A stretch of DNA of 61,992 nucleotides, the filler included, from Hausera hauseri (taxonomy: Eukaryota): assembly GCA_046269625.1 (NCBI GenBank). It is 10 parts of 10 records of this genome, joined end to end, with 100 filler letters (N's around TTAATTAATTAA, not from the genome) between each part and the next. Parts side by side here need not be neighbours in the genome. Positions count along the whole stretch, not along the records: positions 25,142 to 29,984 come from JBJURY010416811.1; 9 more parts are not named here. One strand, given 5' to 3'. A program made the translations under genes and the position numbers. This document shows positions 1 through 43,144 of the stretch, piece by piece. Each line of letters starts with the position of its first letter. Positions within the stretch are counted from its first letter, which is position 1. The notes below the pieces were generated by a model that ran no database searches, had not been told where the DNA came from, and was given only the letters and a program-made list of their open reading frames with translations.

Positions 1-950
1 TTCAGAACACAATTGCCGCTTAAAGCCTTCGACAAAGTTGGAATTGATTTCGCCGGACAGGTGAACACACGACAAAGACGAGGGTTAATACAGGAAAAAA
101 GATACATCTGTCTAATCACGTGTTTACTTTGTAGAGGAGTACACATCGAAATGTTGGCAGGGTTGGACACCAATTCTTTTTTAAAGGCACTGAAACGTTT
201 TATAAGTCGGAGGGAAAGGCCTTCGTTGATAGTCTCCGATAACGTGGAACATTTTTAGGAGTAAATAGAGAAGTGTGCGAATTTCAAATCGACACATATA
301 GTCTCAGGAGAGAGCTCAAGGACAACGAAATAAGGTGGATATTTAATCCTCCTGCAGGACCTCCCTTCGGAAGGGTCTATGAAGTAATGGTAAAGTCCAT
401 AAAAAATTCGTGGAACAAATTGCTTTCGGAGAATTCACTGACAGGTGAAGAATTAGAAACATTACTAATAGAGATTGAAGGAATTACGAATAGCCGACCG
501 CTAATAAGAGCCGTCGATGATAGTAAAAATGATGTCTTCCTCTCTCCGAACCACCATATAATCGCCGGATACAACGGTGTGATCTCATCGGAGGTGACCG
601 GAACGAGGATCAGTAGATTGGCAGATAGATGGAGATACATACAAAAGTTAGTTAGCGAGTATTTGGGTCGTTGGAGAAGTGAATTCCTATCTGAATAGCG
701 AAATTATGAGAGAGAAAAAGGAGAAAAGATAGACCTGAAGATCGGAGAAAAGTGTGGCTATTGGAGAAGAATGAAAAATCAAATCACTGGCCAGTTGCAG
801 AAATAACAAAAGCTTTCCCTGGGATAGACAACGTCACAAGGGTGGTAGAAATAAGACTGAATGGAGAAATGTATAAAAGGCCAGTACACAAGTTATGCAA
901 AATAGAAAATGATTTGAGTTGGACGGATACCATAGAGAACATACCTGTGA
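1..950 (+). pseudogene. BEL/Pao integrase core and C-terminal (DUF5641-like) region, frameshifted
   Basis: GIDFAG, LKRFISRR, IVSDN, WIFNPP, EGITNSRPL, WRSEFL, WPVAEI..AFPG.D...RVVEI. Confidence 0.9.
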
Positions 951-963
951 GCCGGGTTGCCCC

Positions 964-977
964 AAGGAGGGGGGAAA
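964..977 (+). promoter_or_regulatory. Polypurine tract of the BEL element
   Basis: AAGGAGGGGGGAAA after the IN end and directly before TG(CTAGG). Confidence 0.8.
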
Positions 978-2490: not shown

Positions 2491-2492
2491 TT

Positions 2493-2510
2493 TGGTAGCA
2501 GAGCGTGGTT
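2493..2510 (+). promoter_or_regulatory. Primer-binding site complementary to initiator tRNA-Met 3' end
   Basis: TGGTAGCAGAGCGTGGTT is the reverse complement of AACCACGCUCUGCUACCA. Confidence 0.85.
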
Positions 2511-2703
2511 TGTGCTCTGCACCGTAATCCGCGAGCACAGACCATGCGATGCAATGACCTTTCAAATTCTGCATATCCTTTTCCTTGATGTCGGTCTGCT
2601 TTTCTTCCCTTATTGTATGAATGGAGCGAAAATCCGTACCAAGCCCGTATACGTTGCATCAGGTAATGGTGCGCGGAGATTGAGCAACGTTTAAGGCGAG
2701 GCA

Positions 2704-4720: not shown

Positions 4721-4729
4721 AGAAGAAAG

Positions 4730-12199: not shown

Positions 12200-14420
12200 A
12201 GGTCAAATTAGACCAGACTAATGGTCGTCGACTGTGCTTCACCTTTCATACTTTATGTACTAACATTTCCAGGGTATGGTTGAAATATGGTAACCGTTTC
12301 ATGTTTGACGTCAAGTCAAGTGCATGGGCCTCTAGGTTAATTCGCAACGGTTGTTTGATGATGTAGTGGAAAAAAAACGTTTTCGTTAACTGACATTACA
12401 GACGGAACTAGCTGACCAAATTCGTAAATCGGTATTGTCGTAACAGTAAACTCATTCGATACGGAGAACAAGGTTCCATCACTGTTTAGGACAACGAGAG
12501 GGTAAATTTTCATCTGTTTACAAGTGAGCATTATTCGTTTCGATAGGAATGAATGTCTAATCGAATGCACCTTACCGTCTACATGAACCCTCGCATTGAA
12601 CTACAGCCTAACTCAAAGTCCGTGAATACCGCAGTTCAATCACAGTGTATTTTCCATTATCACACAATTCATACTCCAGTCCACCGAGTTATTTCCATCG
12701 TAATCGAATACAAACGGTGTCCACAACAAATCCACATCATACGCAACAACCATAAGACCAGTAAGATAAGTACTCTTGCTCTTCTGTTCCGAATTCTCCT
12801 TCACCGAATTGGTGAACTTTTTTCGTTGCAACATCAACAAGTGGCCAAAGTAATTGACGAGAATACTAGATAACGGTGAACTACCTTGACCATTGTACAG
12901 ATTCTGAGTTATTTCACAGTAAATTGATGATAAATCAACGGAGATCACGCATGCCGAAAATTCGACGTAACTCTCAAGGGAGAAGATCTGACAGAATTGT
13001 AAAGATATTGATCCTGACTCTGTACAGTGTATGTTATGTAGGCATATCGATCCATCAAGGGAAAGCGTGACGAATATGTTATTGTATAAATTAACAACTA
13101 GAATCTGTGATGGTACAGGCAAACTGAAACAACTTTCATCGTCGATCTTTTTTAATAAATAATAGTCTTAATTCGAAATTCTCTTTAATATTGTTATAAC
13201 ATGAAGCACAGATGAGATTTTTAAACCACACTGCAGCACCACAACTTCCATCGACTGTTCTTGTGTTTCATTGCTGCAGTCGCAATTTTTGAGTGTTTAA
13301 ATAAAATACGGCAAAGCCTTTTATTGCCAGAAACAAAAAAGCAGTTTCCATTTCGATTGACAGCTGCAAATTTAATCGGCCAATTAACATTTATATACGA
13401 CTCTGGGTAGTCTATTCGTTCCCATGGTGCCCCGTTGAGGCCAGCTGATTCCGTCGTCGAAAGAAGAAAGAAGACGAGCTGATGAGCAATAAATGCAGTT
13501 AATTATCAGTGATCTGCTTCCCTGACAGAGCCGATTTAGCAAACTGATAAATAACAATTTCGGGTTTTTTGATTTATTTTTCGACTCCCGAATAACCCAA
13601 AATGAATAGCGCTCGGTTCCCCATTCGAAATTAGATAGTCTCAAATAAATATTCCATTCCTGTCGGAGAGAACTGAATAACAGACATTTCTGTGATTACC
13701 ACAAACTGAACCCCTTGTTTTTTCCAACACAGCCAAACAATAGTAATCCGGTGACCATTTCAACGATATTACGGCACCGGTTTCCGTTTCGGCATCGGTG
13801 TATTCATTACAACATCTTCAGTCAGTGTTGGAGACGCCGTGCTCCGGTTTCATCATCGAAATTGTAAACGACACCTTCATCCATTTTTCCACCATATGCA
13901 ATAGAACGAAATTTTAAGTTCACTGCGGAACATGTCGCTCATCGAAGATTTTCGGCCCAAACAACAGAGACTTGTTCGGTGATGAGCTTATGTTTAGGAA
14001 TGTGTAAGAAGGCCGAACGGCCATTCTGAAACAAAATCGCTACACCGCTCAAACTGGGAAACCATTCCATTGCAGAACACTGGGAATCATCTTTTGTCAT
14101 ACTGTTAACTTTGGAAAATTCCAAATCCGTAAAGAACGAAACCAATCCCAATTTAATCTGTTGACTGTACAGAACCCTGCCATCCCATTTGATACGACTA
14201 AATGAAGCGTCGTCGATAGATACGATTGAATCTTCTCGATAAATACATAAGCAATTAATTTTCTTGCTGAATGAAATACTATTCACCAAAACAATTGAAC
14301 CGTTAGAAGGTTTCAAAGGCACCGTTAAATCATTTCCAATTAGTCCACTGGCACAGATTTTTTCTCTTGTTGCCAAATGCTCGTTCAAGCACTGCCTACG
14401 AAATCTACATCGGCATCGGG
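12200..14420 (-). pseudogene. RIC1: RIC1 (Rab6 GEF subunit, Rich) pseudogene or fragment
   Basis: Collinear RIC1 motifs: FFTDLE..., MEWFPSLSGVAILFQNGRSAFL, EQVSVVWAE..ATCSAVNLKFR, TGAVISLKWSPD, SILVNYFGHLLMLQR, HSFLSKRIML...IYPLVVL, LRINLEAHAL..LPYFNHTLEMLVHKV. Stops and frameshifts present. Confidence 0.85.
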
Positions 14421-17400
14421 TTTGGACTGCATCGTTTAGCACTATTTAACAACAAACACATTTCCACCTTTCTGGGATAGTTACTGGCCAAACATTTTTA
14501 ATAAATACAGATATTGACTGATAAAGATTATTTAATTGTAACACACTAGAAACCATAAAAGTCTTATAGAAAAAGATGTAAAGCTGAAAAGCCATAAATA
14601 TAGAATCAGGAAATTTCAAACTGAGCGAATGTACCAATAAAAAACAACTGCGGGATGCCCAAAGACAACAACCAAACTCACCCGTATAATTCTGTATCTG
14701 GGGATCCAGCGAATCCGTGCATGTTATACAACAGAATCTGTACTGTTATTCTTCTGACACCATTTGTGGTACATAACCGTGACCCCTTTATGCCTTGCGA
14801 TCTTTGTAAATAAATTGNNNNNNNNNNNNNNNNNNNNNNNNNNNNNNNNNNNNNNNNNNNNTTAATTAATTAANNNNNNNNNNNNNNNNNNNNNNNNNNN
14901 NNNNNNNNNNNNNNNNNATTCCTCAGTCTATACGAATGAATTCCTCACTCGGGACACTAGATTATATGTTGGCATCGGGGTCGTGTGTATAATTAAACAC
15001 CTAACCTTTATTTTGTGTCAACATGTAACATAATAGTAACAATTGATGTATAATATACTAAGTATACTGTCACTATTAATCCTATGGTGGGATAATGAGT
15101 CACTCTATTTTAGGTATGATATATATTTATACAATATTTTCTATCATATCAATATACATTAGGTAATGAATTCTAAATGTTCGACTTAAAACTATTTTTC
15201 CAAAAATTCATCAATAAAATTAACCTTATCATAAAGGATGGTAATAAGTCCTCGCAGGTAAAAAGGGATGGTAATAAATCCTCCTAGCTAGGTATGACAT
15301 CTTTATAAATTACGTTAATTTCGGACTATATTTTACTAAGGTGTAATTTGATGTAATCCACCTAGTAAAGTTGTATGTTTATTTGTTGCCTCCAATAAAT
15401 ATAAACATATTTTACTGATGTCTATATATTTTGCATTCCTTTTTCTTGCTTTCAAAGTTAATATTGTGACATGTTAAGTACACCATCGCGTGGGTACACC
15501 ATGAATGTTCATTTAATTTACTCTACTTCGACAATATATAAATTAGTTTCAAAATATTAAAAGTTGCTTTTCCTAAATAGAATCGTATTTTATCCCTGAC
15601 GTGATCATCCATAATAATTGCGTTACATTTAGAATTATTTAACAAATATTTCTTTCTATTACTAATTTCACTATGTGCCATTATATGTCCGAGTAAAATA
15701 AAGTATCAGAAAATCAGCGAAGGAGTAGTGCATCGACGTACTTCTCTAAATATCTTTAAAAGAAGCCTTTTGGAAAGAAAACAATTTTCGCAAGGGATCA
15801 AGTCCATATTAATCCTTCTAAAAATCATAATTGTAAATTACACGTAAGTAATTTCAAAGTTTGCATTCCGAATATTGAAATCTTACGGAACTTTCAACAA
15901 AATTATATAGTATTCTACTCCCAATATTATCACAAGCATTTAGAAATATATGTTGGAAATGGTAACTAATATAATGTATTTTTCCTTTGCTTAGATAGGA
16001 ATATTTATTTATATTCCGCGTTCCTACACAAACCTTCTTTTCCTTAAAATTTTATCCATCATTAGGGTAAGAATCAGTCCACTAAACTCTTCTCCCTACA
16101 CACATGCCAACTGTTTGATTTCGGGAGTTTAATCACATTCTCTTATCCAAGGAACTTTGACGAATAAAGATAATGAGAATTACAAANNNNNNNNNNAATA
16201 ATCTGTAAGCAAGACCCACAAACGTCAACAGTATTACCACTAATTCTTATTCAATTATGATTATTTATGATGACCTTCATAGAGATACCGATCTCAAGAT
16301 CACTAGTATATTGTTTCAAATATACACCAACAATCCTTAACAAAGTAACCGTCCTTCTATTACTTACAAAGGAGTCTTCTGGTGTCATTACTATTTTATT
16401 CGTCAGTTGATTCATGACGCAGTGTTGCTTCCGGCCGGTCTTCCAGTGTTCATGTAGAACCTACATATAATAGTACCTTTCATCCAATATAATAAAGAGA
16501 ATTTTAAGTTCTAGACGCAGTTATGTTGATTTCATGAGCGTCTCTAGCGTATCTAAAATTTTCATTGAACCTTTGGTATTCTGGCAAATCTCAAAATTTC
16601 GTTCACAATTAACGAGTAATATTAGATTCCCTTTTTATAAGAGTCACGGAATTCGCTTATTAGAGTCTAAAATCATTTAACAACGTAATCCTCAAGAATC
16701 CGTTCAACATATACGATTTGAAAATCAAATTCCGCTTTCCTGTACAATGCAAACATTTAGAGTACACCAAATCAATATAAACCAGTATCACGATATTTTA
16801 TCTAACAGCATGCTAGTTATGTTCCGGTTGTCAACGATTTGTAGCGTACGCTCCATTTCTCACCGGAATATTTAGCATTAAACTCATCATATCCATCCAG
16901 ATCCACTTTATTTTCCGATTCATATCAATCTAAACTGAAAGCCTTTAATCATTCCCAGCAATCTGACTTTCCATTTTTTGTATCAATCATTTATTACACG
17001 ACAAAACGGTACAAGCGACTATATATAAAGGTATGCGGCAAAACAACTTCAATTATATTGATATATAAACATTAGGAATCAAATTAATGATTTTTATTTA
17101 CCATTGTGTCCTTCCATTTGATTAACATTGCCAGAAGCTTGATCGGCCATTTCGTTGAAATGATGAATTAAATTTATCTGGATAGGACGAATAAATTCGG
17201 AGTGACTCGTAGAACTTCAATATCTTTATTGTGTTGATAATATTTTAAAATAGCTTATAAAGTTCTGATATCATCAAGTCATTACCTGTCGGTAATGATT
17301 TACTTTTACTCTTGAATCTAATTTAATTTTTTCGTGTGTGAATTTCTTGTTGCCGTGTCTCATCTTTTAACTGGTTTATATACCAGTAGGTCATCACTAA

Positions 17401-17931: not shown

Positions 17932-19865
17932 TTTCTGCCCTTATGAGACAGGATTCGGTCCTCCGGATCACTTTGGGTACTGACAGCGATGAAGCTGAGA
18001 TTTCTGGGTCTAATTGTCAATGTCGCATCATTTACTGGATTCATCTAATGGCATAATCGTTGGGTACGGTTGTCGCAGGTATATGGTAAATGGTAGTAGA
18101 CTGATGGTTGACGGCAGTAAGGGCATGATATACCCTTATGAAATGTCATTCGAAATGCATCGTGTGGATCAATGGATTGAAGAAATTGAGAACGAAGTTT
18201 GCTGAAACATGTTGCACATAGATTATGATTTCATTGGAATTGGACCACTGTTATTCGTTCAGTAAGGCAAATCGTACACTCGTAAGTTGGAAGTTGATTG
18301 TAGAAGAGGATTTGCAATGTTGCCCAAAGGTCAAGCGGGGCTAGGTCGGAAATAAAGTCGATTTAACATCTATTTAGAACTGGGAACCAATCTTCTTGTA
18401 ATAATGATGGCAATGGGGGACTGAGATATAGTGGGTGTTGGAGTTATTGAAGGTGCAGGTACTGGCAATTCAGATAATGGTCTGATAATCCGCTCAGGAT
18501 GATAACGTAGATGCGGGATTGCAGATGGTTGATTCCAGTTAATAACAATGGGAACAGTATTCGGCATTACAGCAACTAAATCTGTAGGCTGTTTTATTAT
18601 GTTTTTGGCATAGACAACATATATGGAATTGTAAATATAGCATGGAGAAAGGGGTTGATACACCCCAAGAGTTTTAGCGTCCAGTAAGGATTGGTCAGCA
18701 TCAGATGGGAATGCGTCATGCTGGATACAATACTTAATTTCATATTTACAGATTGGGTAATAAGGCATAGGGTAAGCTTGTGATCGGGCTCGATCCATAC
18801 AATATAAGCAAAGAATATGCACGCATGGTGTTAATCTGTACACTACATTGAGGATTGCTCTGCATTCCATACATTATTGGAGGTCCGAAAATAAGTAGGA
18901 TCAATTAAGATTTAATTCAATGGTATTAAGATCTATACAACTGTCAGTATCTTCAATATACTCTGAGTTCGATAAGTAGTTATACAACTGTACTAATGAT
19001 GACGTATACGTATGGATGATGGTAGTATGTAATAATTGTTCACTTAAACGGATTATAAATACTGGATCTGTCGAGAAATTTGTAGTAATGGAGTGACAGC
19101 TAAGATTGAAGAAGCCATTGGTATTACTAGTAGGTAGTTTCAATGAGCATAAAAGTAGATCGAATTGTGTCGTTATAATAAATTTATACTTCAACATATT
19201 TTGTACGAGAGGTAAAAAATCTTTGTTATTGATTTTATTTAGGGTAAGATCATCTGTTATACCCGAAAAGAGTGTTCTCCAGTCAATAATTTTATTTCGG
19301 ATCTCGTCTTTATGATCCAATATAGCGATATCAATGATGGTTTGATTGATAATTGTCGGATTGGGCTGGGTAGTAACGTAATTATAGGCTAGGAAGGTGA
19401 ATGAGGGTTCTAAATCTGAAAGATAATCCTTCTGGTACTGAAACGTATTCATTTACTGATGAGAGTGGTTTGGTTATACGGATTAATTGCTCGTAGTCTT
19501 CATTGTGGGTGTATATAAGTTTTCGTTGTATCACTTATACAGCATATGTACAGTCGTTCGACGAAGAAATTGCAAAAGACAATAATTCCACAGGAGGGAT
19601 GGTAATAATGCCGCTACAGTTATCGAATAGTTCGTGATCAACATCGAATATAGGATCATTACAGTTAATATCGATAGTCAATTTGCCACTGATGAGATGT
19701 ATAGCTACAGTATCGAATTTTCGCGGCTGGTCGGTAAGAATCAGTTGAGATAACGAATTGGGGATATCAGTGGTTGTCTGTTGAATACACATTTGTCTGG
19801 AATAGAGCTGGCGTTTCTCAGACTTTAAGCTATTTGGGATAGCTGTTTTATTAGGAAAAACATAA
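17932..19865 (-). mobile_element. 3' end of a Gypsy-type element: unknown domain X, pseudo-exonuclease, RING, Pro-rich tail, degenerate PPT; LTR probably starts at 17931
   Basis: Homologous to the C-terminus of ORF 25142-29281. AAGGGCAGAAA|TGTTAGG on the minus strand. Confidence 0.7.
18745..18873 (-). pseudogene. C3HC4 RING finger
   Basis: CMEC-x12-CVHILCLYC-x12-(Y)PIC, with the seventh ligand mutated. Same frame as the upstream exonuclease-like ORF across two stops. Confidence 0.75.
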
Positions 19866-19965: not shown

Positions 19966-22900
19966 GTAATTTACGTAGTTTTGTAGTTTTTCTATCATTT
20001 TTTGGCCTTTTGTCTCGCCTATCTTAATTTTGAATTTTTTCATTTTTTTTTTGGCCCGGTCCCACCTTAACAAAATTTAGTTTTTCCACGAAAAAATTTG
20101 AAAATTTTCTGGATTTTTCTAGTTTGATTTTTTTGCGTGACTTACTTAATTTTGAAGTTTTTTTTACTATTTTGTGGTGTTTTGTCTCGCCTATATTAAT
20201 TTTGAATTTTTTCAATTGTTTTGGCCCGCTCCCTCTTTACCAAAATTTAGTTTTTCCATGAAAAAATTTGACATTTTTTGGTCTTTTCTAATTTGATTTT
20301 TTTGCGTGACTTACTTAATTTGGAAGTTTTTCTATCATTTTTTGGTCTTTTGTATCGACTATCTTAAATTTGTTTTTTTAAATTTTTTGGCCCGCTCGCC
20401 AGTTGCCAAAACTTGGTTTTTTGACGAAAATATTGAAATTTGTATGGTCTTTACTAATTTGAGTTTTTTGCGTGACGTACTTAATTTTGAAGTTTTTCTA
20501 CCATTTTTTGGTCTTTTGCTTTGGCCCGCTCCCCCTTTATCCAGATTTAGTTTTTCCACCAAAAAATTTGAAAATTTTCTGGTCTTTCCCAATTTGAGTT
20601 TTTTGCGTAACTTACTTACTTTCGAAGTTTTTCTCTCATTTTTCGGTCTTTTGTAACGCCTATTTTAATTTTGAATTTTGTCCCATTTTTTGTCCCGCTC
20701 GCCCCTTACCAAAATAATTTTTTCCACGAAAAAATTTGAAAATTATCTGGTCTTTTCCAATTTGAGTTTTTTGTGTGACTTCCTTACTTTTGAAGTTTTG
20801 CTATCACTTTTTGGTCTTTTGTCTCGCCTATCTTAATTTTGATTTTTTCAATGCTTTGGCCCGATCACCCCTTACCAAAATTTCGTTTTTCCACGAAAAA
20901 ATTTGAAAATTGTCTGGTCTTTTCCAATTTGAGTTTTTTGCGTGACTTACTTTCTTTTGAAGTTTTTCTATCATTTTTTGGTCTTTTGTAACGTCTATTT
21001 TAATTTTGAATTTTGTCAATTTTTTTGGCCCGCTCCCCGCTTACCAAAATTTAGTTTTTCCATGAAAAAATGTGAAAATTATCTCGTCTTTTCCAATGTG
21101 AGTTTTCTGCGTGACTTACTTACTTTTGACGTTTTTCTAACATTTTTCGGTCTTTTTTCTCGCCTATTTTAATTTTGAATGTTTTCAATTTTTTGGCCCA
21201 CTCCCCCTTTACCAAAATTTAGATTTTCCACGAAAAAATGTGAAAATTTTCTGGGCATTTCCAATTGAGTTTTTTGCGTTACTTCCTTACTTGTGAAGTT
21301 TTCTACCATTTTTTGGTCTTTTGTCTCGCCTATAATAATTTTGAATGTTTTCAATTTTTTGGCCCGCTCCCCCCTTATCAAGATATAGTTTTTCCACCCA
21401 AAAATTTGAAAATTTTTTGGTCTTTTCTAATTTGAGTTTTTTGCGTAACTTACTTACTTTCGACGTTTTTCTATCATTTTTTGGTCTTTTGTAACGTCTA
21501 TTTTAATTTTGGATTTTGTCAATTTTTTTGGCCCGCTCCCCGCTTACCAAACATTTGTTTTTCCATGAAAAAATGTGAAAATTATCTCGTCTTTTTTTAA
21601 TTTGAGTTTTTTGCGTAACTTACTTACTTTTGACGTTTTTCTAACATTTTTCGGTCTTTTGTCTCGCCTATTTTAATTGTGAATGTTTTCAATTTTTTGG
21701 CCCGCTCCCCCTTTACCAAAATTTAGTTTTTTCCACGAAAAAATGTGAAAATTATCTCGTCTTTTCCAATTTGAGTTTTTTGCATGACTTACTTACTTTT
21801 GACGTTTTTCTATCATTTTTTATTCTTTTGTCTCGCATATCTTTATTTTGAACTTTTTCATTGTTTTCGCCCGCTCCCCTTACAAAAATTTGGTTTTTCC
21901 ACGAAAAAATTTTAAAATTTTCTGGTCTTTTCCAATTTGCGTTTTTTGGGTAACTTACATACTTTTGAAGTTTTTCTATCATTTTTTTGGTATTTTGTCT
22001 CGCCTATATTAATTTTGAATTTTTTCAATTTTTTGGTCCGCTCCCCCCTTATCAAGATATAGTTTTTCCACCAAAAAATTTGAAAATTTTCTGGTCTTTT
22101 CCAATTTGAGTTATTTGCGTGACTTACTTATTTTTCAAGTTTTTCTACCATTTTTTGGTCTTTTGTCTCGCCTACATTAATTTTCAATGTTTTCGATTTT
22201 TTGGCCCGATCCCCCCTTACCAAAATTTGGTTTTTCCACGAAAAAATTTGAAAATTGTCTGGTCTTTTCCAATTTGAGTTTTTTGCGCAACTTACTTACT
22301 TTTGAAGTTTTTCTATCATTTTTTGGTCTTTTGTCTCGCCTATCTTAATTTTGAATTTTTTCATTTTTTTTTTTTTTTTGGCCCGGTCCCCCCTTAACAA
22401 AATTTAGTTTTTCGACGAAAAAATTTGAAAATTTTTTGGTCTTTTCCAATTTGAGCTTTTTGCGTAACTTACTTACTTTCGAAGTTTTTCTATCATTTTG
22501 TGGTCTTTTGTAACGTCTATTTTAATTTTGAATTTTGTCAATTTTTTTTTTGGCCCCCTCCCTGCTTACCAAAATTTACTGTTTCCATGAAAAAAATGTG
22601 AAAATTATCTCGTCTTTTCCAATTTGAGATTTCTGCGTGACTTACTTACTTTTGACGTTTTTCTAACATTTTTTCGGTCTTTTGTCTCGCCTATCTTAAT
22701 TTTGATTTTTTCAATGCTTTGGCCCGATCCCCACTTACCAAAATTTGGTTTTTCCACGAAAAAATTTGAAAATTGTCTGGTCTTTTCCGATTTGAGTTTT
22801 TTGCGTGACATACTTACTTTTGAAGTATTTTCTACCATTTTTTTGGTATTTTGTCTCGCCTATATTAATTTTGAATTTTTTCAATTTTTTTGGCCCGCTC

Positions 22901-25041
22901 CCCCCTTATCAAATATAGTTTTTCCACCAAAAAATTTGAAAATTTTTTGGTCTTTTCCAATTTGAGTTTTTTGCGTAACTTACTTACTTTCGAACTTTTT
23001 CTATCATTTTTTTGGTCTTTTGTAACGTCTATTTTAATTTTGAATTTTGTCAATTTTTTTGGCCCGCTGCCCGCTTACCAAACATTAGTTTTTCCATGAA
23101 AAAATGTGAAAATTGTCTCGTCTTTTCCAATTGGAGTTTTCTGCGTGACTTACTTACTTCTGACGTTTTTCTAACATTTTTCGGTCTTTTGTCTCGCCTA
23201 TTTTAATTTTGAATGTTTTCAATTTTTTGAACCGCTCCCCCTTTACAAAAATTTAGATTTTCCACGAAAAAATGTGAAAATTTTCTGGGCATTTCCAATT
23301 GAGTTTTTTGCGTTCCTTACTTAATTTTGAAGTTTTTCTACCATTTTTTGGTCTTTTGTCTCGCCTATGTTAATTTTGAATTTTTTCATTTCAATTGTTT
23401 TGGCCCGCTCCCTCCTTACCAAAATTTAGATTTTCCAAGAAAAAATTTGACATTTTTCTGGTCTTTTCTAATTTGATTTTTTTGCGTGACTTACTTAATT
23501 TGGAAATTTTTCTATCAATTTTTGGTCTTTTGTCTCGACTATCTCAATTTTGAATTTTTTCAATTTTTTTGGCCCGCTCCCCAGTTACCAAAACTTGGTT
23601 TTTTGACGAAAAAATGTGAAAATTTTCTGGGCATTTCCAATTTGAGTTTTTTACGTGACTTACTTAATTTTGAAGTTTTTCTACCATTTTTTGGTCTTTT
23701 GTTTTGGCCCGCTCCACCCTTATCCAGATTTAGTTTTTCCACCATAAAATTTGAAAATTTTCTGGTCTTTCCCAATTTGAGTTTTTTGCGTAACTTACTT
23801 ACTTTCGAAGTTTTTCTATCATTTTATGGTATTTTGTAACGCCTATTTTAATTTTGAATTTGGTCCCATTTTTTGGCCCGCTCGCCCCTTACCAAAATTT
23901 AGTTTTTCCACGAAAAAATTTGAAAATTATCTGGTCTTTTCCAATTTGAGTTTTTTGCGTAACTTACTTACTTTCGAAGTTTTTCTATCATTTTTTGGTC
24001 TTTCTTGTTGCCTATTTTAATTTTGAATTTTTTCAATGTTTTGGCCAGGTCCCCCCTTACCAAAATTTAGTTTTTCCACGAAAAAATTTGAAAATTGTCT
24101 GGTCTTTTCCAATTTGAGTTTTTTGCATAACTTACTTACTTTTGAAGTTTCTCTATCATTTTTTGGTCTTTTGTCTCGCCTATGTTAATTTTGGATTTTT
24201 TCAATTTTTTTGGCCCGCTCCCTCCTTACCAAAATTTGCTTTTTCCACGAAAAAATTTGAAAATTGTCTGGTCTTTTCCAATTTGAGTTTTCTGCGTGAC
24301 TTACTTACTTTTTACGTTTTTCTAACATTTCTCGGTCTTTTGCCTCGCCTATTTTAATTTTGAATGTTTTCAATTTTTTGGCCCGCTCCCCCTTTACAAA
24401 AATTTGGTTTTTCCACGAAAAAATTTTAAAATTTTCTGGTCTTTTCCAATTTGCGTTTTTTGGGTAACTTACATACTTTTGAAGTTTTTCTATCATTTTT
24501 TTGGTATTTTGTCTCGCCTATATTAATTTTGAATTTTTTCAATTTTTTGGTCCGCTCCCCCCTTATCAAGATATAGTTTTTCCACCAAAAAATTTGAAAA
24601 TTTTCTGGTCTTTTCCAATTTGAGTTATTTGCGTGACTTACTTATTTTTCAAGTTTTTCTACCATTTTTTGGTCTTTTGTCTCGCCTACATTAATTTTCA
24701 ATGTTTTCGATTTTTTGGCCCGATCCCCCCTTACCAAAATTTGGTTTTTCCACGAAAAAATTTGAAAATTGTCTGGTCTTTTCCAATTTGAGTTTTTTGC
24801 GCAACTTACTTACTTTTGAAGTTTTTCTATCATTTTTTGGTCTTTTGTCTCGCCTATCTTAATTTTGAATTTTTTCATTTTTTTTTTTTTTTTGGCCCGG
24901 TCCCCCCTTAACAAAATTTAGTTTTTCGACGAAAAAATTTGAAAATTTTTTGGTCTTTTCCAATTTGAGCTTTTTGCGTAACTTACTTACTTTCGAAGTT
25001 TTTCTATCATTTTGTGGTCTTTTGTAACGTCTATTTTAATT
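19966..25041. repeat. Tandem satellite, ~167-172 bp monomer, about 30 copies
   Basis: Recurring TTGTCTCGCCTAT...TTGGCCCGCTCCCC...TTCCACGAAAAAATTTGAAAA; anchor spacings of 172, 168, 168 and 167 bp. Confidence 0.97.
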
Positions 25042-25141: not shown

Positions 25142-28100
25142 GTCATAGCAGCCATATGGAGTATCACAGAGCAAGAAGAGTCATTACTACGAAAACAACG
25201 AAGTGACGAACAAATCAAACAAATTAAAGAATATTTAAAAAGGAAAACAATACCAAGTGATGTTAATCTTTATACCCATTTAAAACAGTTTGCTGAAAAC
25301 TATGAAACAAAGAATGATATATTGTATTATAATCACAAAGGAAAACTAGCTATAGTTGTTCCTCAAGAAGATATAAAGTTGCTGCTGACACAGTACCATG
25401 ATGGTATGATGGGAGGACACCAATCAATAAAAAGGACCTTAGGAAGATTGAAGAGAAAATATTATTGGTACACCATAACTAAGGATGTCCAAGATTGGTG
25501 TAAGAGTTGCCCAGTCTGTGCCACTAGAAAGAATACCGGTTCAAAAATTAGAGTCCCTCTCAAGCCAATAGAATGTCCACCGGCTCCTATGGAATTTTCA
25601 GCAATGGACATCCTGGGTCCATTGCCTCTAACGATTAATGGAAACAAATACATGTTGGTGTTTGTTGATCTATTTTCTAGATGGCCAGTTGTAATACCAA
25701 TACCAGATCAAAAGGCTCAAACTATTGCTCAAGCCTTCGTCGAAGAAATTGTTTTTAACTATGGTGCACCAACTAAATTACTAACGGATCAGGCACCCAA
25801 TTTCACAGGAGAAGTTATGGCAGAAATATCGAAAATATTTCAAATATTACAACTAAAAACTACTCCGTATCATCCTCAAACGAATGGAACAGTGGAAAGA
25901 TTCAACGGTATCTTAACTAACATGTTGGCCACTATGGTCAATGAACGACAAGATGATTGGGACGAATATATCAAGCCATGTTTATTTGCCATTAGAAATA
26001 CAATCCATCCGGCAACGAAAGAAACTCCCTTCTATTTGATGTATCTCAGAGATACTCACATGCCAATCGATTTAGACTTTAAAATGCCTGTCTCCCATTT
26101 GAAGAACGTGACGTATAAAGAGTTATTAGAAGAAAAATTAGGGTATGTATGGAGTTTGGCCTCACGTCATACGAAAATGTGTCAAAAAGAATATAAAAAC
26201 CGTTACGATGAAAAGGCTAAACCACATGACCTTAAACCTGGAGACAAAGTTATGCTACACACGCCATTAAGTAAGAAAGGCAGAACACCAAAGTTAGATA
26301 GACCATATAAAGGTCCCTATATGGTCCAGAAAGTAGATGAAACTAACATCTACTTAAACAAAAACAAAAGAAATAAAATGAATCCAATAAAAGTCCATGT
26401 GAACAGATGCAAGCCGGCACCAATAGAATCAAAAATAAGAAATGAGAGTTTTAGCCCATCGCTAATGGCAACACTGATGATGCTAATTTTAGTAACCAAT
26501 GTATCAGCCCAGTCCTTGGATGTGAATTATAAGGCCGTACAGGTTGGAAAATACCCTTGTATAAAAATTACGGCTAATCGAAACTTAACAATGGATGAAT
26601 ATATACACATATTCATATCGAAATTGCCGATAGTAGAAAAGGCAACACCAGAGAATTGTGATCTATATTATAACCATTCAATACACACCTGCTGTGGACT
26701 TTCATTCGGAGAAACGTACAGGATTCAATACGCAACGGGGAAAAGCGACCAGAGTTACAGAACATATTTCTCATACCCTGGTACCACACATTATTTTCAC
26801 CGACCATACTTTCTTATTTCATTCTATGCTAAGGTCATGAAGAATGGACCTTGCGTAACGGCAGAACCAGATGTCATAATTACAAGGTATACAAAGTTCA
26901 AGTATATAATATTTGACGGAACTAACAGTATAGACTGTGAACCGAATTATCAAGATCCATATAAATGTTGCCCTATCGTTTTTAACAAACAATATACGAT
27001 ATACTACTGGACCACGTATAACGGTTATACATGGTCAAAAACAGCAGATGGTCCAGAGATAACTGTAAGATCTCCGGTAAAGGTAACCCCTATTTCGACA
27101 ACCAAAACAATTGCCTCAGTAACAAAACCAAGTATACCAACTATATTACAAAAAGTAGTAACTACACCAATAATAGAACCTAAGAAGGATATTAAAGAGT
27201 TGGATATAATTATCCAACCAACAAGTCACTCATTAATTATTACAGTGCTCAACCTGAAGAATACAAACATAAAATTCGAGTGCAACCTCAACCACAGAGT
27301 GATTAGCGAAGGAGTTTTAACTCCCGAAGAACCAACATCTGTATGTATGTTCTTAAAATCTGACACAAATTATAAAGTCGTCATAACAGAATTAGATGAC
27401 GAAGGAGAAAAATTACGAACAGTTTCTCGGACCGAAAAGACCTTAAAACTAATAACAACTACCTCAAAAGCTATGCAAAAAGTAATTACACAAAAACTGG
27501 AACAAAATTCGAACAAAAATCTTTGGATAATTAGTACGTTATGCGTCCTCCTAATATTACTAGCCATATTGTTACCTTTAGTAATTTATTGTTCGAAAAT
27601 AAGACAACGACAGCATAGGATAAGGGAAATGTTAGATCAATTAAAAATTTTAAGGGAAGATTCCCAGGTATCGTCACAAGACGTAAGTGCGCCTTTCCTA
27701 GAAAACCAACGACAAGTTGAAAGACTTATCGACCAAGAGCGGCAGATCCAACCGTTGAAAGACACAACCATATGTCTTTGCATAAAAATCCATGACCAGG
27801 CCGCAAAATTCCTAGCGACCTATATTAAAAAACGACAATCGAAATATGATAAAATCCTTTTTTGTAAAACCGCTTGGCTAATATTAATATTTTTATTTTT
27901 AGTCCAAGAAGGTGCAGAACGAACTGAAAGACCCAACTCCTTCTATAACCATATTTTATCCAATTTATGGGCCACCTCCAATAAAGATTATTGCTATTAT
28001 GGAAGAGCCGTTTTTATTCCCAACAATCTCAAGGGCTATTCAGTCCAGCAAAGAAGTAGCCTTATAATCAAGGTCCGACAAAGTTCGACTAATCTCTCTG

Positions 28101-29281
28101 ATCTCATCGATACCTCCGGACACACCTATGCCATATATATCTCTGTGGCTAAAGGAACCATCCAGCTCAAAAGCAAGTCCCACTCCAATGGAATCACAGA
28201 TGTAATGGAAGTTTTAACCCGCGTAACAATCCGTCTGGACCCTCGATTGTACGCAAATGCCACGATTACCATACGGACATGCCGAGAAGTGTTCCCAATA
28301 ATCTTTTTAGAAGTCATAAAGAAGGACTTAATCCCACGCTTAGATTACGAAATTCCCAAATACTCTACTCCCAAACCAAAAGAACTTGATGTAGAACAAG
28401 GACTGTCATTCGCAAGAAGACTAATAACATCAAAAGAGGAAATGTTAATAATGGCCGTAAATCCAATATATCTATTCACCCCTATCAGGAATACCGAAAT
28501 GACTACGGTGGAAGTAACCCTAATGGACTTAAATGGAAAAGTTATTTTGGATGAGATTCTATGTCCTAGAGAAAAGATCGATAATTACAACAGCCATGTA
28601 ACCGGACTAAAAGAAGATAATATTATTGGGAAAAAGGACTCGTATCATGAAGAACCTTTCATCAGGAAAATAATCATCGGGAAAATAATCATAGGCATTG
28701 ATGTTTACCACATCTTTGCTTCTATTTTTAGATATGACTACAACAATTTATTGGGGATTAGAGAATTGTTGTACCACGATAATGTTAATCCCCAACGCAT
28801 ATTCTCAGCCAAACAGATCTTCACCCAGTACAATAATAACATATACCCTCAAAGAACAAAAGAGAAAGCAATTACAATATTAAAGATTTACAACTCCATT
28901 CCAGAGTATCAAAATGAACAATTTCAAACTCCAATGGATGTGCAAGAATCTACAGACACTTCATCAATTGCCACCTGTTCAACATCTACCCAATCCGCCA
29001 ATAATCAAATATCAATTTCTTCAAGAGACAGTCATATTAATTTGAATCCATTAACAATAGCAAGTTCCTCAGAATCGATTGTCGTTGACCTAACCAAAGC
29101 CTCAAAGAAGAAAAAGAAAATTCCAAAAACCGAAACAATAACCCTAAAGAAACAGATTAAAAAAAGAGGACGACTACTCCATATCAAGTCTGTTGACTAT
29201 CAGGACTCTAATGGTGTTATTGAAGCTTACCCTCTGATGCTGTGGACAGCATCGTCTAAGGAGGGAGAAGATGTGCAGTAG
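25142..29281 (+). CDS. Gypsy pol 3' end, 5'-partial: integrase fused in frame to signal peptide, three FN3-like domains, TM, domain X and REX4-like pseudo-exonuclease
   Basis: Open from contig start. HDGMMGGH...CPVC; AMDILGPLP; LTDQA; YHPQTNGTVERFN; YKGPY; MATLMMLILVTNVSA|QS; LWIISTLCVLLILLAILLPLVIYC; VEVTLMDLNGKVILDEILCPREKIDNYNSHVTGL. Confidence 0.9.
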   Translation, partial: VIAAIWSITEQEESLLRKQRSDEQIKQIKEYLKRKTIPSDVNLYTHLKQFAENYETKNDILYYNHKGKLAIVVPQEDIKLLLTQYHDGMMGGHQSIKRTLGRLKRKYYWYTITKDVQDWCKSCPVCATRKNTGSKIRVPLKPIECPPAPMEFSAMDILGPLPLTINGNKYMLVFVDLFSRWPVVIPIPDQKAQTIAQAFVEEIVFNYGAPTKLLTDQAPNFTGEVMAEISKIFQILQLKTTPYHPQTNGTVERFNGILTNMLATMVNERQDDWDEYIKPCLFAIRNTIHPATKETPFYLMYLRDTHMPIDLDFKMPVSHLKNVTYKELLEEKLGYVWSLASRHTKMCQKEYKNRYDEKAKPHDLKPGDKVMLHTPLSKKGRTPKLDRPYKGPYMVQKVDETNIYLNKNKRNKMNPIKVHVNRCKPAPIESKIRNESFSPSLMATLMMLILVTNVSAQSLDVNYKAVQVGKYPCIKITANRNLTMDEYIHIFISKLPIVEKATPENCDLYYNHSIHTCCGLSFGETYRIQYATGKSDQSYRTYFSYPGTTHYFHRPYFLISFYAKVMKNGPCVTAEPDVIITRYTKFKYIIFDGTNSIDCEPNYQDPYKCCPIVFNKQYTIYYWTTYNGYTWSKTADGPEITVRSPVKVTPISTTKTIASVTKPSIPTILQKVVTTPIIEPKKDIKELDIIIQPTSHSLIITVLNLKNTNIKFECNLNHRVISEGVLTPEEPTSVCMFLKSDTNYKVVITELDDEGEKLRTVSRTEKTLKLITTTSKAMQKVITQKLEQNSNKNLWIISTLCVLLILLAILLPLVIYCSKIRQRQHRIREMLDQLKILREDSQVSSQDVSAPFLENQRQVERLIDQERQIQPLKDTTICLCIKIHDQAAKFLATYIKKRQSKYDKILFCKTAWLILIFLFLVQEGAERTERPNSFYNHILSNLWATSNKDYCYYGRAVFIPNNLKGYSVQQRSSLIIKVRQSSTNLSDLIDTSGHTYAIYISVAKGTIQLKSKSHSNGITDVMEVLTRVTIRLDPRLYANATITIRTCREVFPIIFLEVIKKDLIPRLDYEIPKYSTPKPKELDVEQGLSFARRLITSKEEMLIMAVNPIYLFTPIRNTEMTTVEVTLMDLNGKVILDEILCPREKIDNYNSHVTGLKEDNIIGKKDSYHEEPFIRKIIIGKIIIGIDVYHIFASIFRYDYNNLLGIRELLYHDNVNPQRIFSAKQIFTQYNNNIYPQRTKEKAITILKIYNSIPEYQNEQFQTPMDVQESTDTSSIATCSTSTQSANNQISISSRDSHINLNPLTIASSSESIVVDLTKASKKKKKIPKTETITLKKQIKKRGRLLHIKSVDYQDSNGVIEAYPLMLWTASSKEGEDVQ
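29258..29271 (+). promoter_or_regulatory. Polypurine tract; putative 3' LTR starts at 29272
   Basis: AAGGAGGGAGAAGA|TGTGCAG overlapping the ORF end. An alternative PPT lies at 29808-29817. Confidence 0.65.
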
Positions 29282-30520
29282 TCTAAAATAAACAATTTGA
29301 TTGAAATAACGATCGTTTATTTGACTTTCAGAGTGATTCAAAATAGACTGATTATTTGGCTTTTAAATTGAATAATAAATTATCCATGAACTAAATGTAA
29401 TTTAATTTATTCTTGATCCATGATTAAATTGATTTCTGTTTTCTTTTGGTCTGCAATAATTGGTTTTTATTTATCATATAAATTTCCTGTGGTGGTAGAT
29501 AAGTATATATACTGGTGTCATTTACACAATTTTTATAACTTTTTGACGAGGACAATTCTCATGATGATGAACCATGCTTATGACAATTGTGAGTTTTTAT
29601 TTCATTTGTTTATTGCGTTTTGATTGTCGTTAGATTATCGTATTCATAATTGTGATTAAATATTTTATCTTAATCTTTTTCTTATTTTCATTTATAAATA
29701 ATTAATTAAGAGTATTGTATTGTAATAGGCATAAAATAACACAAATATATAAACCCTTTTGGTATACCTTCCTTTAATACAGGTCGGTTGTTTAATCTAC
29801 GATAAATAAAGGGGGAGTGACGTCGGTGTACCTCCCGACCGAGCTCATACATTAAGGAAAAGTAAATTAAACTTAATCCTTGAATTTCGGCAGACCCACA
29901 GGCTGCCGAATACCTTGATTAATTAAACAGAACTTGGGACAAGGAGAGGGCCCAAGTTAAGTATCGATAGTATAAGTTTAAGGTNNNNNNNNNNNNNNNN
30001 NNNNNNNNNNNNNNNNNNNNNNNNNNNNTTAATTAATTAANNNNNNNNNNNNNNNNNNNNNNNNNNNNNNNNNNNNNNNNNNNNTACTTCAGGAGATAAA
30101 TTGTGAAATTCCTAACAGAAGTACCCACAGGCTGCACTGGAGGTGCTACAGCTAATACTGCTGCCGCTAGTTGTGTTTGCATATCACTACAGAAATTTGC
30201 AAAATTGTTTAAGATGGCAGTAACCTTCTTTAGTCTATGCTATGCTTTAACTAGCCATTAGCTCATTTGTTCAGAGAACTAAAACAGGTAAGATATTATT
30301 TGTTCAAAACCTTTCCAGAGAACCCCACTTTAAAGTACTTTTTAAAGATACATTTTCCAATTTCAAAAAACAACACAAATATTTTAAAAAAGTTAGGTCG
30401 TACTCAGACCAGGAAATTCCTTTGGTCCGCTTGTTTGGTCCGAACAAAAAGTAGGCTTTATATCTATTTTTGTTTTGAATAATTTATAATTCTGAATATT
30501 TTTAAAGTATTTTCATTCAG

Positions 30521-38280: not shown

Positions 38281-38394
38281 TCTCTTACCTGTCTTATTGT
38301 GAATCGTGTTCAAAATTGGAAGAAAATGTTTCTGAATCATTTCTTGCGCTAAAACATTAGATGGATTTTGTATACTGTGGAGACAAATCATCTT

Positions 38395-40154
38395 ATGCAG
38401 GTAATTGTGACTTAGTAACATCAATTAAAATTCGTAAATTATTGGCGGAATTTATGAAAGAATTGTAATTAGGATAATTTACGTGCGGCGGTATTGAGGT
38501 GGTTCCGCTGTAAATGCCCAACGGTGGGATGGCGGATTTGTCAACGATGACAAGTCCAATCGACGGAAACGTCAAAAGCTCTCCAGTTGTTTGGAGTTGT
38601 CGAAGAATGGAAGGAATTTCCATCTTTGTTAAATTGTTTATGGAATCTGTGATACTGGCACTTGCAAAAACTTGAGTTTGAGCAGCTTTTGTAGTTTCAA
38701 GAGCAATTTTCATATCTTCAGTTTGTTTAAAAGGTAAATGTTTGTACATGTTATTTGTAAGTTGTCGAAAATTTTCCTTGAGAATTAACTGAATGAGATC
38801 GTATGTGGTTGTCATGTTACTTCTTTGTTTGCGAATTAATTCTTTTTGCCTTTTATTTATAAAGGTGCCAGATTCAGCAATAAGATCCATTTTACCAACA
38901 GCCACGACTTAATGGTATTTATAAATTTAACTCCATGGGAGGCTTGCTCGAGATTTCTTCTGGATTCGAAAGTACTTTTAAGTAATAGGATGCTTCTTTC
39001 TAGATTTTCGTCTTGGTACAAAAGTTTGTAGTCAAGGAAAGGCTTAAGAATCATTGGGTCAGTGAGAAATTTTTTATATGGTTCAGGCCTGTTTGAGATT
39101 TTCAATGCTACTCCAAGAATGTTTGCTTGATTGTCGGCTACTTCTGTCATGGATGCTAACTTGGTAATAACTACTTTGTTGATTCTTTCCACTAGGTCTT
39201 TAACAGCATTGAATTTTGAACTGAAGTTAGTAATAATTTCGTCAATGCTTGCTTTTATAGTCGATTCGGATATTGACGCAACATAACACATTGAGCATTT
39301 TGGATCATTTCTGTTCCGTCCGATAAGATCAACAGAAATTCTTTCAGAATCTGATGTCAATAAAGTTTGAGCATAGCACCACTGGTCAATAAAATCCTTG
39401 CTTACACATTTCGAATAATTTTCTTGGTTAAGGTGCTCTTTCATGTTAACATTTCGATCGACAAATATCGTTTTCAAGGACGTTACTAAATTTTCAATTG
39501 ACTCAGTGCTGGGTTTTACTTCAATGGCTAAAATTTGGATGACTGAAGAATAAGTCACTCCGCGAATGAAGTCTAAAGCTTTAATAATGTTAAATTCATT
39601 AAATAATGGACTTTCAACGTCCAAAACAATGACAAACATTGAACGACCAACTATGAAAGGAACCATAAAACTCGTTGGGCAAAATAGCTGAATAATGTTA
39701 ATTTTAGTATCACAAAGTGTCCATGCATTTGGCTCGAATATAATTGGAGTTTCTTCTTTTCGAACTTTGAAAGAACAGGTTTTAATGTAATGACCAATGT
39801 CATATTTAAAATTTAGATCTATTGAGAGAATCACTAAGTTTGTTGGTAATGTCTCTGCACTGGTTGCTTCTCGAAATAATGATTGGCTGAAAATTGGATC
39901 AGTTGCCCACAGTTTCTCCGTACAACCATCCAATATTAATTCTTTAATATTCGGAAAATACTGAGCCAATATTTCAATACCTAGATCTGTTAAATGACAG
40001 CAACAAGTTAAATTTATTGACATGATATTTTCCTTTTGGTTTGATTAAGTTCTTGCTTCAAAACAAAGAACACTTCGTCGGAAAGTTGATCAATGCCACT
40101 AAAGTCGAGGGTTATTAGATCTTTAGATGGTCCAATGAGTTTAGTGATGGATTT
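38395..40154 (-). pseudogene. LRR plus degenerate Roc/COR-like (Roco-like) gene fragment, frameshifted
   Basis: LDFSGIDQLSD, INLTCCCHLTDLGI, LILDGC (LRR); RSMFVIVLDV (Roc-like strand); AVGKMD; LQTTGELLTF...LVIVD (COR-like). Confidence 0.45.
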
Positions 40155-41110: not shown

Positions 41111-43144
41111 ATTATGAAGAATTAAAATATTCGGAAAAACGATTATAACAGTTTTGTAGAGCAAAATGACCTCTTTCGAATAGTATATACATCGTGCGAA
41201 ATAATGCACAATTCGTTATAAACAAAATCCAACTTGGGTAAAATAGAACAAAATTCACGATATATACTAATATAACTTGGGTAAAACAGCACAAAATGTA
41301 TTTATTCATTCAATAATGGATTCAATAATGAAAAGGTGCGTGCGTTTAAGTTAAGTACAGATCAACAATATAAAGAGCTCCGTATTTATATAATTTCATG
41401 AAAACTCCTTTTTTATGGCCAATGGATTAAATCAACAATGTCGATGTGAGATGTCTTAATTATCGCTATATATAGTAGGTAGAAGTGAGGGTTCCAGCCC
41501 ACTTTCCCAAAAGTGCTCAGATCGACCTCTGACTAAGTTTTCCCCACCTATCTTGCAATTCTGAGCATTTCATGTTTTTTCGTCGGAAGACCCCCCTCAG
41601 CCGGAAACACATGTCATGTGTCATCAATGGTAATCGGTAGTGCTCGATGAGGCGAGAAAATTTTTATAGAACGGCGCCAGTCAAAAATGTAACCGGGAGG
41701 CGCTAGATGCAAAAGAAGCAAAACGGGAAATGTTCTACTAGAAACGAGACACGAGTTACCAATTTCGCAATGTTTGGTNNNNNNNNNNNNNNNNNNNNNN
41801 NNNNNNNNNNNNNNNNNNNNNNTTAATTAATTAANNNNNNNNNNNNNNNNNNNNNNNNNNNNNNNNNNNNNNNNNNNNCTTGAAAAATATGATAAACTGC
41901 AATATAGACATAGAATCATTTCTTTGCAAAGAAAGCCATGAGTCGATTAGTATTTTTAATAATAAGACTTCACGTTTAATCGTTGATACCGCTTACGAAA
42001 GATTGGAAGATATAGATAAAAAATAATACTTTTCATCAATATTAAGTAATATTTAAATCTGAAAATGTATTATCCAGTGATATACTTTTAACTGATAACT
42101 TTAGCGATAGTTTTCCCATACCTGATCCACCATCAGAAAGGAGTGTTATTCAACTTACTCTGTGTTATAATGTGCCATATTTGACATTTATAAATGTCAA
42201 TGATTACATCATTGGATTTTGGACCTTTGGTTCACTTGTAAATTTACCATCGGTAATTTGTCGCATAAAGAAGCACAAGAAACCGAAACTTTTATGTTTA
42301 TACCCTTTATTCCCACAAAAGTATGCTACATCTAAAGAATTTTTGAACTCAATCCAATCAGTTGAAGATAAGGGCGAGATATCATATGTAAATATTTTGT
42401 CGGTAAAACATAAAAAGTATTTCATCGCCAATCAATGATCATAACATAGCAACAGATGATAGTGAGAGTTCCGATGCAAGACACAATTCACGGGATAAAA
42501 CTGATCATTTAAAATAATCAAACATATTGATCCATGAAGCCAAACGTAATTCGACAGGGATTATTTCTGTCGATTCAGTTGATCGAATAAAATCATTAAA
42601 GCCGATAAAGCTCGAAACATTTTTGGTTCGTGAACAATGCCATAGAAGCGTAAAGAAGGATTTTCTTGTTGTTGAATTATCTGAGACATTTGACAGTCAG
42701 TGAGTGCCTGCCGAAGAGAAGTTTTTCAACATCTACAGCGAAGAATCAAAAGATGACTTGTCGGTTAATAACTGTAAATTAGAGAAGAAACATTTTTACA
42801 TGCACGATAGTTCAAACATTTGTGGAATCAAGCCCGTCCAGTTCTGATACGACATATTGTTTTGAATACCAAACAATCCCTTATTTAACAAACAAGTTTT
42901 TCTATAACTCTACAATCCAATTTGATATTGAACTGTACGACAGGATTTTACCAACCAAAAACTCGTTTAAAGTGTTCTGAAACTGCCCAACTGAAACCTA
43001 GTCTATCCGGTCTATCCAGAGGTGTTTCTTCAGACTTGACAATTGCAGACACATCAATTCAGCCAAAAGTAAGGGTGCAAAGTAATTTTGTTATTGAATA
43101 TATTACTCTATTCACGGCGCATTCAACAAATTGTCGGACTGAGG

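Follow-up and report, generated by a model that had tools for sequence, protein, structure and literature searches.

The window analysed here, 61,992 nucleotides (nt) from Hausera hauseri (GenBank assembly GCA_046269625.1), consists of ten contigs with N-TTAATTAATTAA-N spacers between them. One of these contigs (JBJURY010416811.1, 4,843 nt, positions 25142-29984) carries the 3' end of a Ty3/gypsy retrotransposon that exists in many copies and is referred to below as the Hausera element. In this element the integrase is predicted to be followed in frame by a type-I membrane protein in which one fibronectin type III-like (FN3-like) domain is shown and two more are likely. This anatomy on its own we regard as highly probable. 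That the polyprotein runs from the integrase into a second, non-fusogenic surface protein serving attachment beside a class III envelope protein (env) encoded upstream is the explanation we favour, with somewhat better than even confidence. The FN3-transmembrane (FN3-TM) protein thus likely accompanies a real fusogen as a second membrane protein, old and clade-wide, and is not a new kind of env.

The frame behind the integrase

Translation gives a single 1,379-codon frame that the 5' edge of the contig leaves open. In it the integrase, a signal-like stretch, two Cys repeats, a stalk, an immunoglobulin (Ig)/FN3-like sandwich and a TM helix succeed one another (Table 1). The integrase has the H2C2 zinc finger, DDE core and GPY/F module of Ty3/gypsy elements, and a polypurine tract is followed by a TG-initiated long terminal repeat (LTR; 29808-29819); only the 3' end is on the contig and the 5' LTR lies outside it. 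The contig begins just before the integrase; the order protease (PR), reverse transcriptase (RT), RNase H (RH), integrase (IN) was found in relatives. There is no stop codon past the GPY motif, as a reading made from the sequence alone (the sequence-only reading) had reported, and the frame continues into the predicted membrane protein. The sequence-only reading ended the feature at 27920; the same frame continues for 450 codons and holds an AlkB-like and ISG20-like module that had been overlooked.

Table 1. Features of the Hausera element (positions in the window)
Feature	Position	Strand	Basis or remark
Single open frame, 1,379 amino acids (aa)	25142-29281	+	3' part of Ty3/gypsy polyprotein, 5'-truncated by contig edge
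Integrase	25142-26430	+	Pfam PF17921 E 1e-19, PF00665 E 2e-13
H2C2 zinc-binding part of integrase	25358-25534	+	
rve core of integrase	25583-25876	+	
GPY motif of integrase	26312-26320	+	
Signal-peptide-like stretch MATLMMLILVTNVSA, predicted internal signal	26465-26509	+	hydropathy; similar stretch in 16/17 relatives
Cys-rich repeat 1, FN3-like by motif only	26519-26800	+	repeat test; C-x2-L-x5-Y at 26690
Cys-rich repeat 2, FN3-like by motif only	26801-27060	+	repeat test; motif at 26966
Thr/Pro/Val-rich stalk	27061-27184	+	sequence
Unit 3, seven-strand Ig/FN3-like sandwich	27185-27445	+	AlphaFold, Foldseek, VIA, clade profile
Predicted TM helix with basic stop-transfer	27521-27592	+	KD19 3.05
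Second hydrophobic stretch, probable T-rich tract of 3' splice site	27863-27913	+	AG at 27901-27902
AlkB-like / double-stranded beta-helix domain	27905-28336	+	model pLDDT 87, 22-row alignment
ISG20/REX4-like DEDDh exonuclease fold	28421-28930	+	phmmer ISG20 E 1.6e-4
Ser/Thr-rich tail with Lys/Arg cluster, like a nuclear localization signal by eye	28931-29281	+	sequence
Polypurine tract	29808-29817	+	AAAGGGGGAG immediately 5' of TG
Probable 3' LTR start (TG...)	29818-29984	+	sequence; cut by contig end

The signal-like stretch, the stalk before the third unit and the TM helix with the basic residues behind it, all proposed from the sequence alone, were recovered, although the hydrophobicity of the first is modest (Kyte-Doolittle 2.79 over 11 residues). 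Between signal and TM the ectodomain is about 335 aa long. Its two internal repeats are indeed related to each other (alignment score 50, against 27.4+/-4.9 for shuffled sequences, 2/1000 of which reach 50). The motif C-x2-[LIV]-x5-Y, picked after the sequences had been seen, is present in units 1, 2 and 3, and three matches occur in 2/5000 shuffles.

The claim of three FN3-like domains held in part. Unit 3 is modelled by AlphaFold as a seven-strand beta-sandwich with a predicted local distance difference test (pLDDT) of about 60-77, and Foldseek ranks fibronectin type III domains and monobodies highest for it (E about 2e-3, TMt 0.6-0.7). VIA gives Z scores of 7-8, with FN3 tied with other Ig-like and C2 folds. 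The Pfam FN3 cut-off is not reached, the only match being Fn3_Dep-1_3rd (14.7 bits vs a cut-off of 26), and the Atlas fn3 clusters at 0.86 are a lead only. For units 1-2 the fold did not follow: both are unfolded in the single-sequence AlphaFold model (pLDDT <50). Word-index protein searches with the ectodomain and with residues 430-1379 gave no match.

Copies were sought in six runs, each coded as a different organism and a different study, and contigs from all six aligned to the stretch; the run with the best match may be the source sample itself. One run alone (X1) has 7,888 matching contigs, three quarters of them less than 95% identical to the Hausera contig, so the family has many diverged copies. 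Depth was rejected as a measure of copy number, which it does not carry. A chimeric join between integrase and signal was looked for and none was seen. A 191-nt contig (X2 record 9) bridges this junction gap-free at 84% identity (26363-26553), another (X5 record 24) covers 27627-27990 gap-free, and a 1,947-nt X2 contig passes from integrase into ectodomain with a joint that recurs in five of the six runs. These diverged, gap-free contigs, together with the same layout in relatives, indicate that the junction is no chimera.

The frame is maintained over 26330-27990 (2,715 X1 contigs). Seven indel rows were listed across four runs; each has a small share of the depth or a depth <3, and several keep or restore the frame. 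In repeats 1-2, 19 of the 22 listed differences are synonymous, vs 31% expected, and selection acts on these repeats. The earlier suggestion that an intact frame of >4 kb amid decayed transposable elements points to recent activity or selection is supported as to selection on these repeats; the argument from decayed surroundings is not, the contigs being artificially joined and the elements flanking 25142-29984 unrelated to the Hausera element. Within 28966-29782, X1 and X2 (two organisms and two studies by code) both have pieces identical to the Hausera contig, the X2 piece being 817 nt long; these may reflect close hosts, a common co-sequenced organism or recent transfer.

Relatives and their upstream env

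Four scans of viral contigs returned no relative. A metagenome scan with the AlkB-like/exonuclease module gave two loci, L001 and L002, from 100 candidates. The frame of L002, at least 2,862 aa long, runs from a signal and class III fusion protein to a post-integrase TM. It comprises the signal, a Monjiviricetes-type class III fusion protein (E 7e-84), a TM and two proteases; it continues with RT, RNase H, integrase, a signal-like stretch, two related beta-rich units, a Thr stalk, a TM and a basic stop-transfer. The exonuclease of L002 is a separate open reading frame (ORF) downstream of the polyprotein. Between the two lies another ORF of 222 aa (8757-9425 of L002), charged and coiled-coil-like, with no Pfam family and with TTTTAG immediately before its ATG. 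T-rich AG sites immediately precede both downstream ORFs.

With the integrase and tail of L002 as query and a length filter of 1,574-5,009 aa, 67 proteins were retained. Ten were dropped for short alignments, and in a quick tree of 57 rows 17 grouped with the Hausera element. A careful tree of 26 rows, built on the integrase only with 8 outgroups of our choice, places the Hausera element and these 17 relatives in one clade (support 99/98), with the Hausera element on a long branch (0.82) as sister (90/95) to P0046-P0050. Its integrase is 48-58% identical to those of the 17 members.

The Hausera Pol thus groups with elements bearing a class III (gB/chuvirus-type) env upstream of PR/RT: among the 18 rows of the clade 12 have this env, upstream of RT and in the same frame (Pfam PF24664, E 1e-83 to 1e-97), and of the other five relatives three have records whose first residues already lie within PR or RT. 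Probably the clade belongs to the GAG-ENV-POL gB-type (Burro-like) kind. Behind the integrase, a signal-like stretch and a TM are found in 16/17 relatives (15 by hydropathy threshold, P0044 by eye), and 11 carry both env and the signal-TM module. Since the relatives have a class III env plus a post-integrase membrane protein, the FN3-TM protein is likely not env. A role in place of env is contradicted by the 12/17 relatives whose polyprotein has the env upstream. The captured surface protein proposed in the sequence-only reading survives as a non-fusogenic type-I surface protein, not as a one-off capture, the part being old and clade-wide.

The ectodomains of 12/16 relatives contain 1-2 units with C-x2-[LIV]-x5-[YH]. 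A profile of these 20 units, Hausera units excluded, matches Hausera unit 3 with E 2e-8 and 22.9 bits, vs at most 11.1 in 1000 motif-keeping shuffles; units 1-2 share the motif with the relatives, not the profile. Across the clade the units are far more variable (median identity 17%) than env (36-49%) or RT (61-86%), a variability that would resemble that often seen in host-facing proteins.

In eight of the 16 relatives the 15 residues leading up to the hydrophobic stretch contain no Met. Between integrase and signal, 9/16 have a protease-like D[ST]G, and a Pfam protease follows the integrase in 4/6 relatives scanned. The missing Met and the protease motif both fit polyprotein processing, and the release by signal peptidase suggested earlier is plausible.

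Other features of this region vary within the clade. One or two extra aspartic-protease-like domains separate integrase and signal in P0042 and P0044-P0051, and P0049 and P0050 have ankyrin repeats behind the integrase. P0040 has an additional signal, FN3-like unit and TM ahead of the protease (residues 40-230), showing that the module can duplicate and move. In P0051, P0052, P0053 and P0042 signal and TM are retained around an ectodomain of another kind, short and Cys-rich in P0051/P0052; differing ectodomains between a kept signal and TM suggest a swappable cassette. Outside the clade, in the GAG-ENV-POL-type P0067, a hydrophobic stretch and a domain containing Cys lie far behind the integrase, without the FN3 motif.

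The FN3-TM protein was compared with the three fusogen classes. For class III, no Pfam fusogen matches and the clade env profile scores -1.8 on the post-integrase part; an ectodomain of about 530 aa would be expected, vs about 335 aa here. For class I, no R-x-x-R lies between signal and TM and the ectodomain has no internal hydrophobic segment, in agreement with the furin site and fusion peptide noted as missing beforehand. For class II there is no Pfam match, and the viral Foldseek rows to glycoproteins have a root-mean-square deviation (rmsd) of 23-42 A, obtained with a low-confidence model in which units 1-2 are unfolded. Matching no fusogen tested, in line with the first proposal, the protein is likely a second surface protein. 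No env-like match occurs elsewhere in the window. A complex prediction of an L002-type env with the FN3 ectodomain gave no verdict (score 0.00, alignments unused) and is counted neither way.

The C-terminal module and the other contigs

The second hydrophobic stretch, which the sequence-only reading called signal-like, is likely encoded by the T-rich tract of a splice acceptor for the downstream module. The site is the most T-rich among the 98 YAG sites of the frame, and its AG at 27902 agrees in phase, and roughly in position, with the acceptor-like site that precedes the separate exonuclease ORF in L002. As a signal peptide the stretch was rejected: it has no small residue at -3, and the lumen would then receive a module of nucleic-acid type whose tail is basic. 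The acceptor proposed earlier, TTTTAG at 26449-26454, is a poor one, following a purine-rich stretch. The first in-frame ATG of the C-terminal region is only at 28205, so the module must come either from a message spliced to an exon further upstream or from the end of the polyprotein.

HMMER against 1.84 billion representatives gave 29 matches, all within the last 450 residues, and none in the ectodomain. All but one belong to one unnamed family, many of whose members are stand-alone ORFs of 420-590 aa; P0002-P0030 form this family of "IPN-motif" AlkB-like and DEDDh proteins. P0021 was a spurious repeat match and was left out of the alignments. With 21 members as alignment, the module was modelled at pLDDT 87. 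The first domain is closest by VIA to Ofd2, ALKBH7 and ALKBH6 (Z 12.2-12.4), with an rmsd of 2.6-2.7 over 133-134 residues to Ofd2 and ALKBH7. The alignment of the family has no invariant columns resembling an HxD...H iron triad. The second domain has a DnaQ-like fold (Foldseek ISG20 E 1.5e-8; VIA Z 17.2, rmsd 2.7 over 159 residues). In the Hausera copy, a pseudo-nuclease, the catalytic D, E, D, H and D are all absent, while 15/21 aligned relatives have all five (third site D or E). Dead versions recur, 6/21 being likewise without the catalytic set. The module is a further accessory family, nameless in the databases searched.

A second, broken member of this family lies on a different contig of the window (18370-19865, minus strand), split over two frames (E 2e-8 and 1e-4 against the family profile) and followed by RING-like ORFs detected with Pfam below cut-off. 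Decayed LTR-element pol fragments occupy other contigs (243-7276, 7830-10112 and 42889-47873); with the RT/IN of the clade the ones at 7843-8987 and 45114-47013 share no more than 28-40% identity, and the fragment at 243-7276 may be Bel/Pao-like by its motifs. Two ORFs of 395 and 171 aa without Pfam family (38393-40044, minus strand) adjoin a decayed gag-like ORF. Exons of a host RIC1-like gene (12640-14445, minus strand; PF25440, E 7e-12 for 12640-13164) come from a eukaryote with introns and, taken with the resemblance to planarian env described below, would suggest an animal host, perhaps a flatworm; 19966-25041 is an entire contig of 166-169 bp satellite.

A probable second surface protein beside env

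GAG-ENV-POL errantiviruses whose env is of the HSV (herpes simplex virus)/gB type are reported from Platyhelminthes, Bryozoa and Nematoda (Chary and Hayashi 2026, PMC13524379). In the parts of that work used here they have a Ty3/gypsy pol with a class III env upstream, the same arrangement as in 12/17 of our relatives, and the Schmidtea env rows of its supplement resemble the L002 env by eye. Its main text has no mention of fibronectin, FN3, immunoglobulin, exonuclease, AlkB or DEDD, though its figures may show tails, and its supplement none of fibronectin, FN3, exonuclease or ankyrin. In the planarian giant gypsy elements Burro / GYPSM1, gag and pol flank an in-frame env (Arkhipova and Yushenova 2019, PMC6431247). 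Burro is described in the text of that paper as one huge ORF with CCHC knuckles, a ubiquitin/SUMO-like domain and ankyrin repeats, and our relative P0038 is built likewise; these descriptions, on which the comparison rests, mention neither a signal-FN3-TM protein behind the integrase nor an AlkB-like/ISG20-like module (PMC6431247). Unlike in Burro, BIR, MATH and BCL2 domains are not among the Pfam matches of the six relatives scanned.

More distant systems share single traits with the Hausera element. Atlas virus, a hookworm belpaovirus, is described as a single polyprotein in which pol is followed by membrane glycoproteins, as here, with a receptor-binding GN distinct from the fusogen GC; it differs in being Bel/Pao, in its class II fusogen from Phenuiviridae, and in its FN3-like topology, which is domain III inside the fusogen and not a separate protein (PMC9094657). 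The bdelloid LTR elements Juno/Vesta similarly have, in the account consulted, a DnaQ-like exonuclease or a small TM ORF3 downstream of pol; that exonuclease belongs to the RNase D-like DEDDy type, keeps its active sites intact and is encoded by separate ORFs (PMC5408684), whereas the Hausera one is an ISG20-like DEDDh fused to an AlkB-like domain, and a dead copy. Exonucleases are listed as an accessory domain of LTR elements (PMC6338049), and an AlkB-type domain is reported from orchid gypsy elements (PMC9289625). The literature searched, with Repbase, figures and subscription papers outside it, gave no account of a post-integrase FN3-TM protein, which is apparently undescribed.

We propose that the polyprotein would be threaded through the membrane in the manner of a flavivirus polyprotein: Gag (cytosol), signal, Env (lumen), TM, PR/RT/RH/IN (cytosol), then signal, FN3 ectodomain (lumen, later surface), TM and tail. 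Alternating signals and TMs would place env and the FN3 ectodomain in the lumen of the endoplasmic reticulum while Gag and Pol remain cytosolic; signal peptidase and the element protease would release the parts, and the FN3 protein would serve attachment beside the class III fusion protein. The pseudo-nuclease module is likely made in the cytosol from a spliced message using the acceptor at 27902, read-through into it being a by-product or a second route. Two-protein entry is known from herpesviruses (gD/gH-gL with gB) and paramyxoviruses (HN with F), in which a separate surface protein stands beside the fusogen. These systems are a possible working analogy for the FN3 protein. A fuller version, put forward tentatively, divides cell entry between two glycoproteins released from one flavivirus-like polyprotein: the gB-type fusogen ahead of pol and, behind the integrase, a modular, quickly evolving FN3 protein for attachment or triggering. 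A dedicated AlkB-like/ISG20-like RNA module would accompany them.

Attachment beside env is ranked first, with host-cell modulation a close second. In the latter the anatomy would be the same and the protein would act on the host cell, as receptor mimic, immune decoy, superinfection block or cell-adhesion helper, a further accessory cargo of Burro-like elements. We give this a real, minority chance: the number (1-3) and kind of ectodomain units vary among relatives, P0040 has its additional copy ahead of the protease, the clade collects accessory domains (ankyrin, ubiquitin-like, AlkB-like, exonuclease) and Burro carries apoptosis and ubiquitin regulators in the published description (PMC6431247). 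The in-frame fusion to Pol nevertheless couples amount and synthesis site to those of the particle proteins, and a host modulator could occupy a separate ORF, like the L002 exonuclease. Alternatively, the membrane protein might come mainly from a spliced or internally started message (ATG 26465 or a nearby acceptor), the open junction being incidental. An in-frame ATG opens the signal-like stretch and a Met lies nearby in 8/16 relatives, and the T-rich AG sites of L002 indicate that the family likely splices. This is unlikely all the same, for the junction is open in the Hausera element and in all 16 relatives with the module, half of these relatives have no Met there, and the AG at 26454 is outside the 8 most T-rich of the 98 sites. 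That the FN3-TM protein is itself the envelope, a new fusogen type replacing gB in a sub-lineage, is very improbable. Its canonical env position, signal, Cys-rich ectodomain and TM would suit such a role, the upstream region of the Hausera element is unseen and in 5/17 relatives the ORF has no visible env. Against it stand the missing furin-type site, the lack of a match to the clade env profile or to any Pfam fusogen, and the 11 relatives that have env and module together. An assembly chimera, or a host gene fragment caught by one dead copy, is hardly credible: the contig is short (4.8 kb), the assembly is repeat-rich and fragmented and no single aligned run contig covers the whole stretch, but the two gap-free bridges, the joint shared between runs and the recurrence of the layout in distant relatives speak against it.

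Several points also weigh against attachment beside env. The contig starts inside pol, so that the upstream env of the Hausera element is inferred only, and class III fusogens of rhabdo- and baculoviruses work without a partner. Units 1-2 resemble those of the relatives by motif alone (hhalign probability 0.2%), and the direct alignment of the Hausera and L002 ectodomains is marginal (24/500 shuffles), the link being made by profile only. Four of the 16 relatives lack the FN3 motif and P0041 has neither signal nor TM behind the integrase; the FN3 fold is thus not essential to the lineage. The query containing the tail, together with the length filter, may favour elements with tails. The synonymous counts rest on the best-supported few dozen of >1,400 difference rows, and they give no purifying signal in unit 3 (2/7 listed differences synonymous) or in the juxtamembrane part (2/8). 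For the module, L001 has no clear acceptor immediately before the exonuclease start.

Env-bearing gypsy elements are catalogued by their fusogen only, and this clade seems to hold a second surface protein, conserved in place and fast-changing. A TM protein at the "env position" behind the integrase need not be env. The FN3-TM protein is a candidate determinant of cell or host specificity in invertebrate endogenous retroviruses. If the two-glycoprotein reading is true, a retroelement would enter cells by means of two proteins, as herpes- and paramyxoviruses do.

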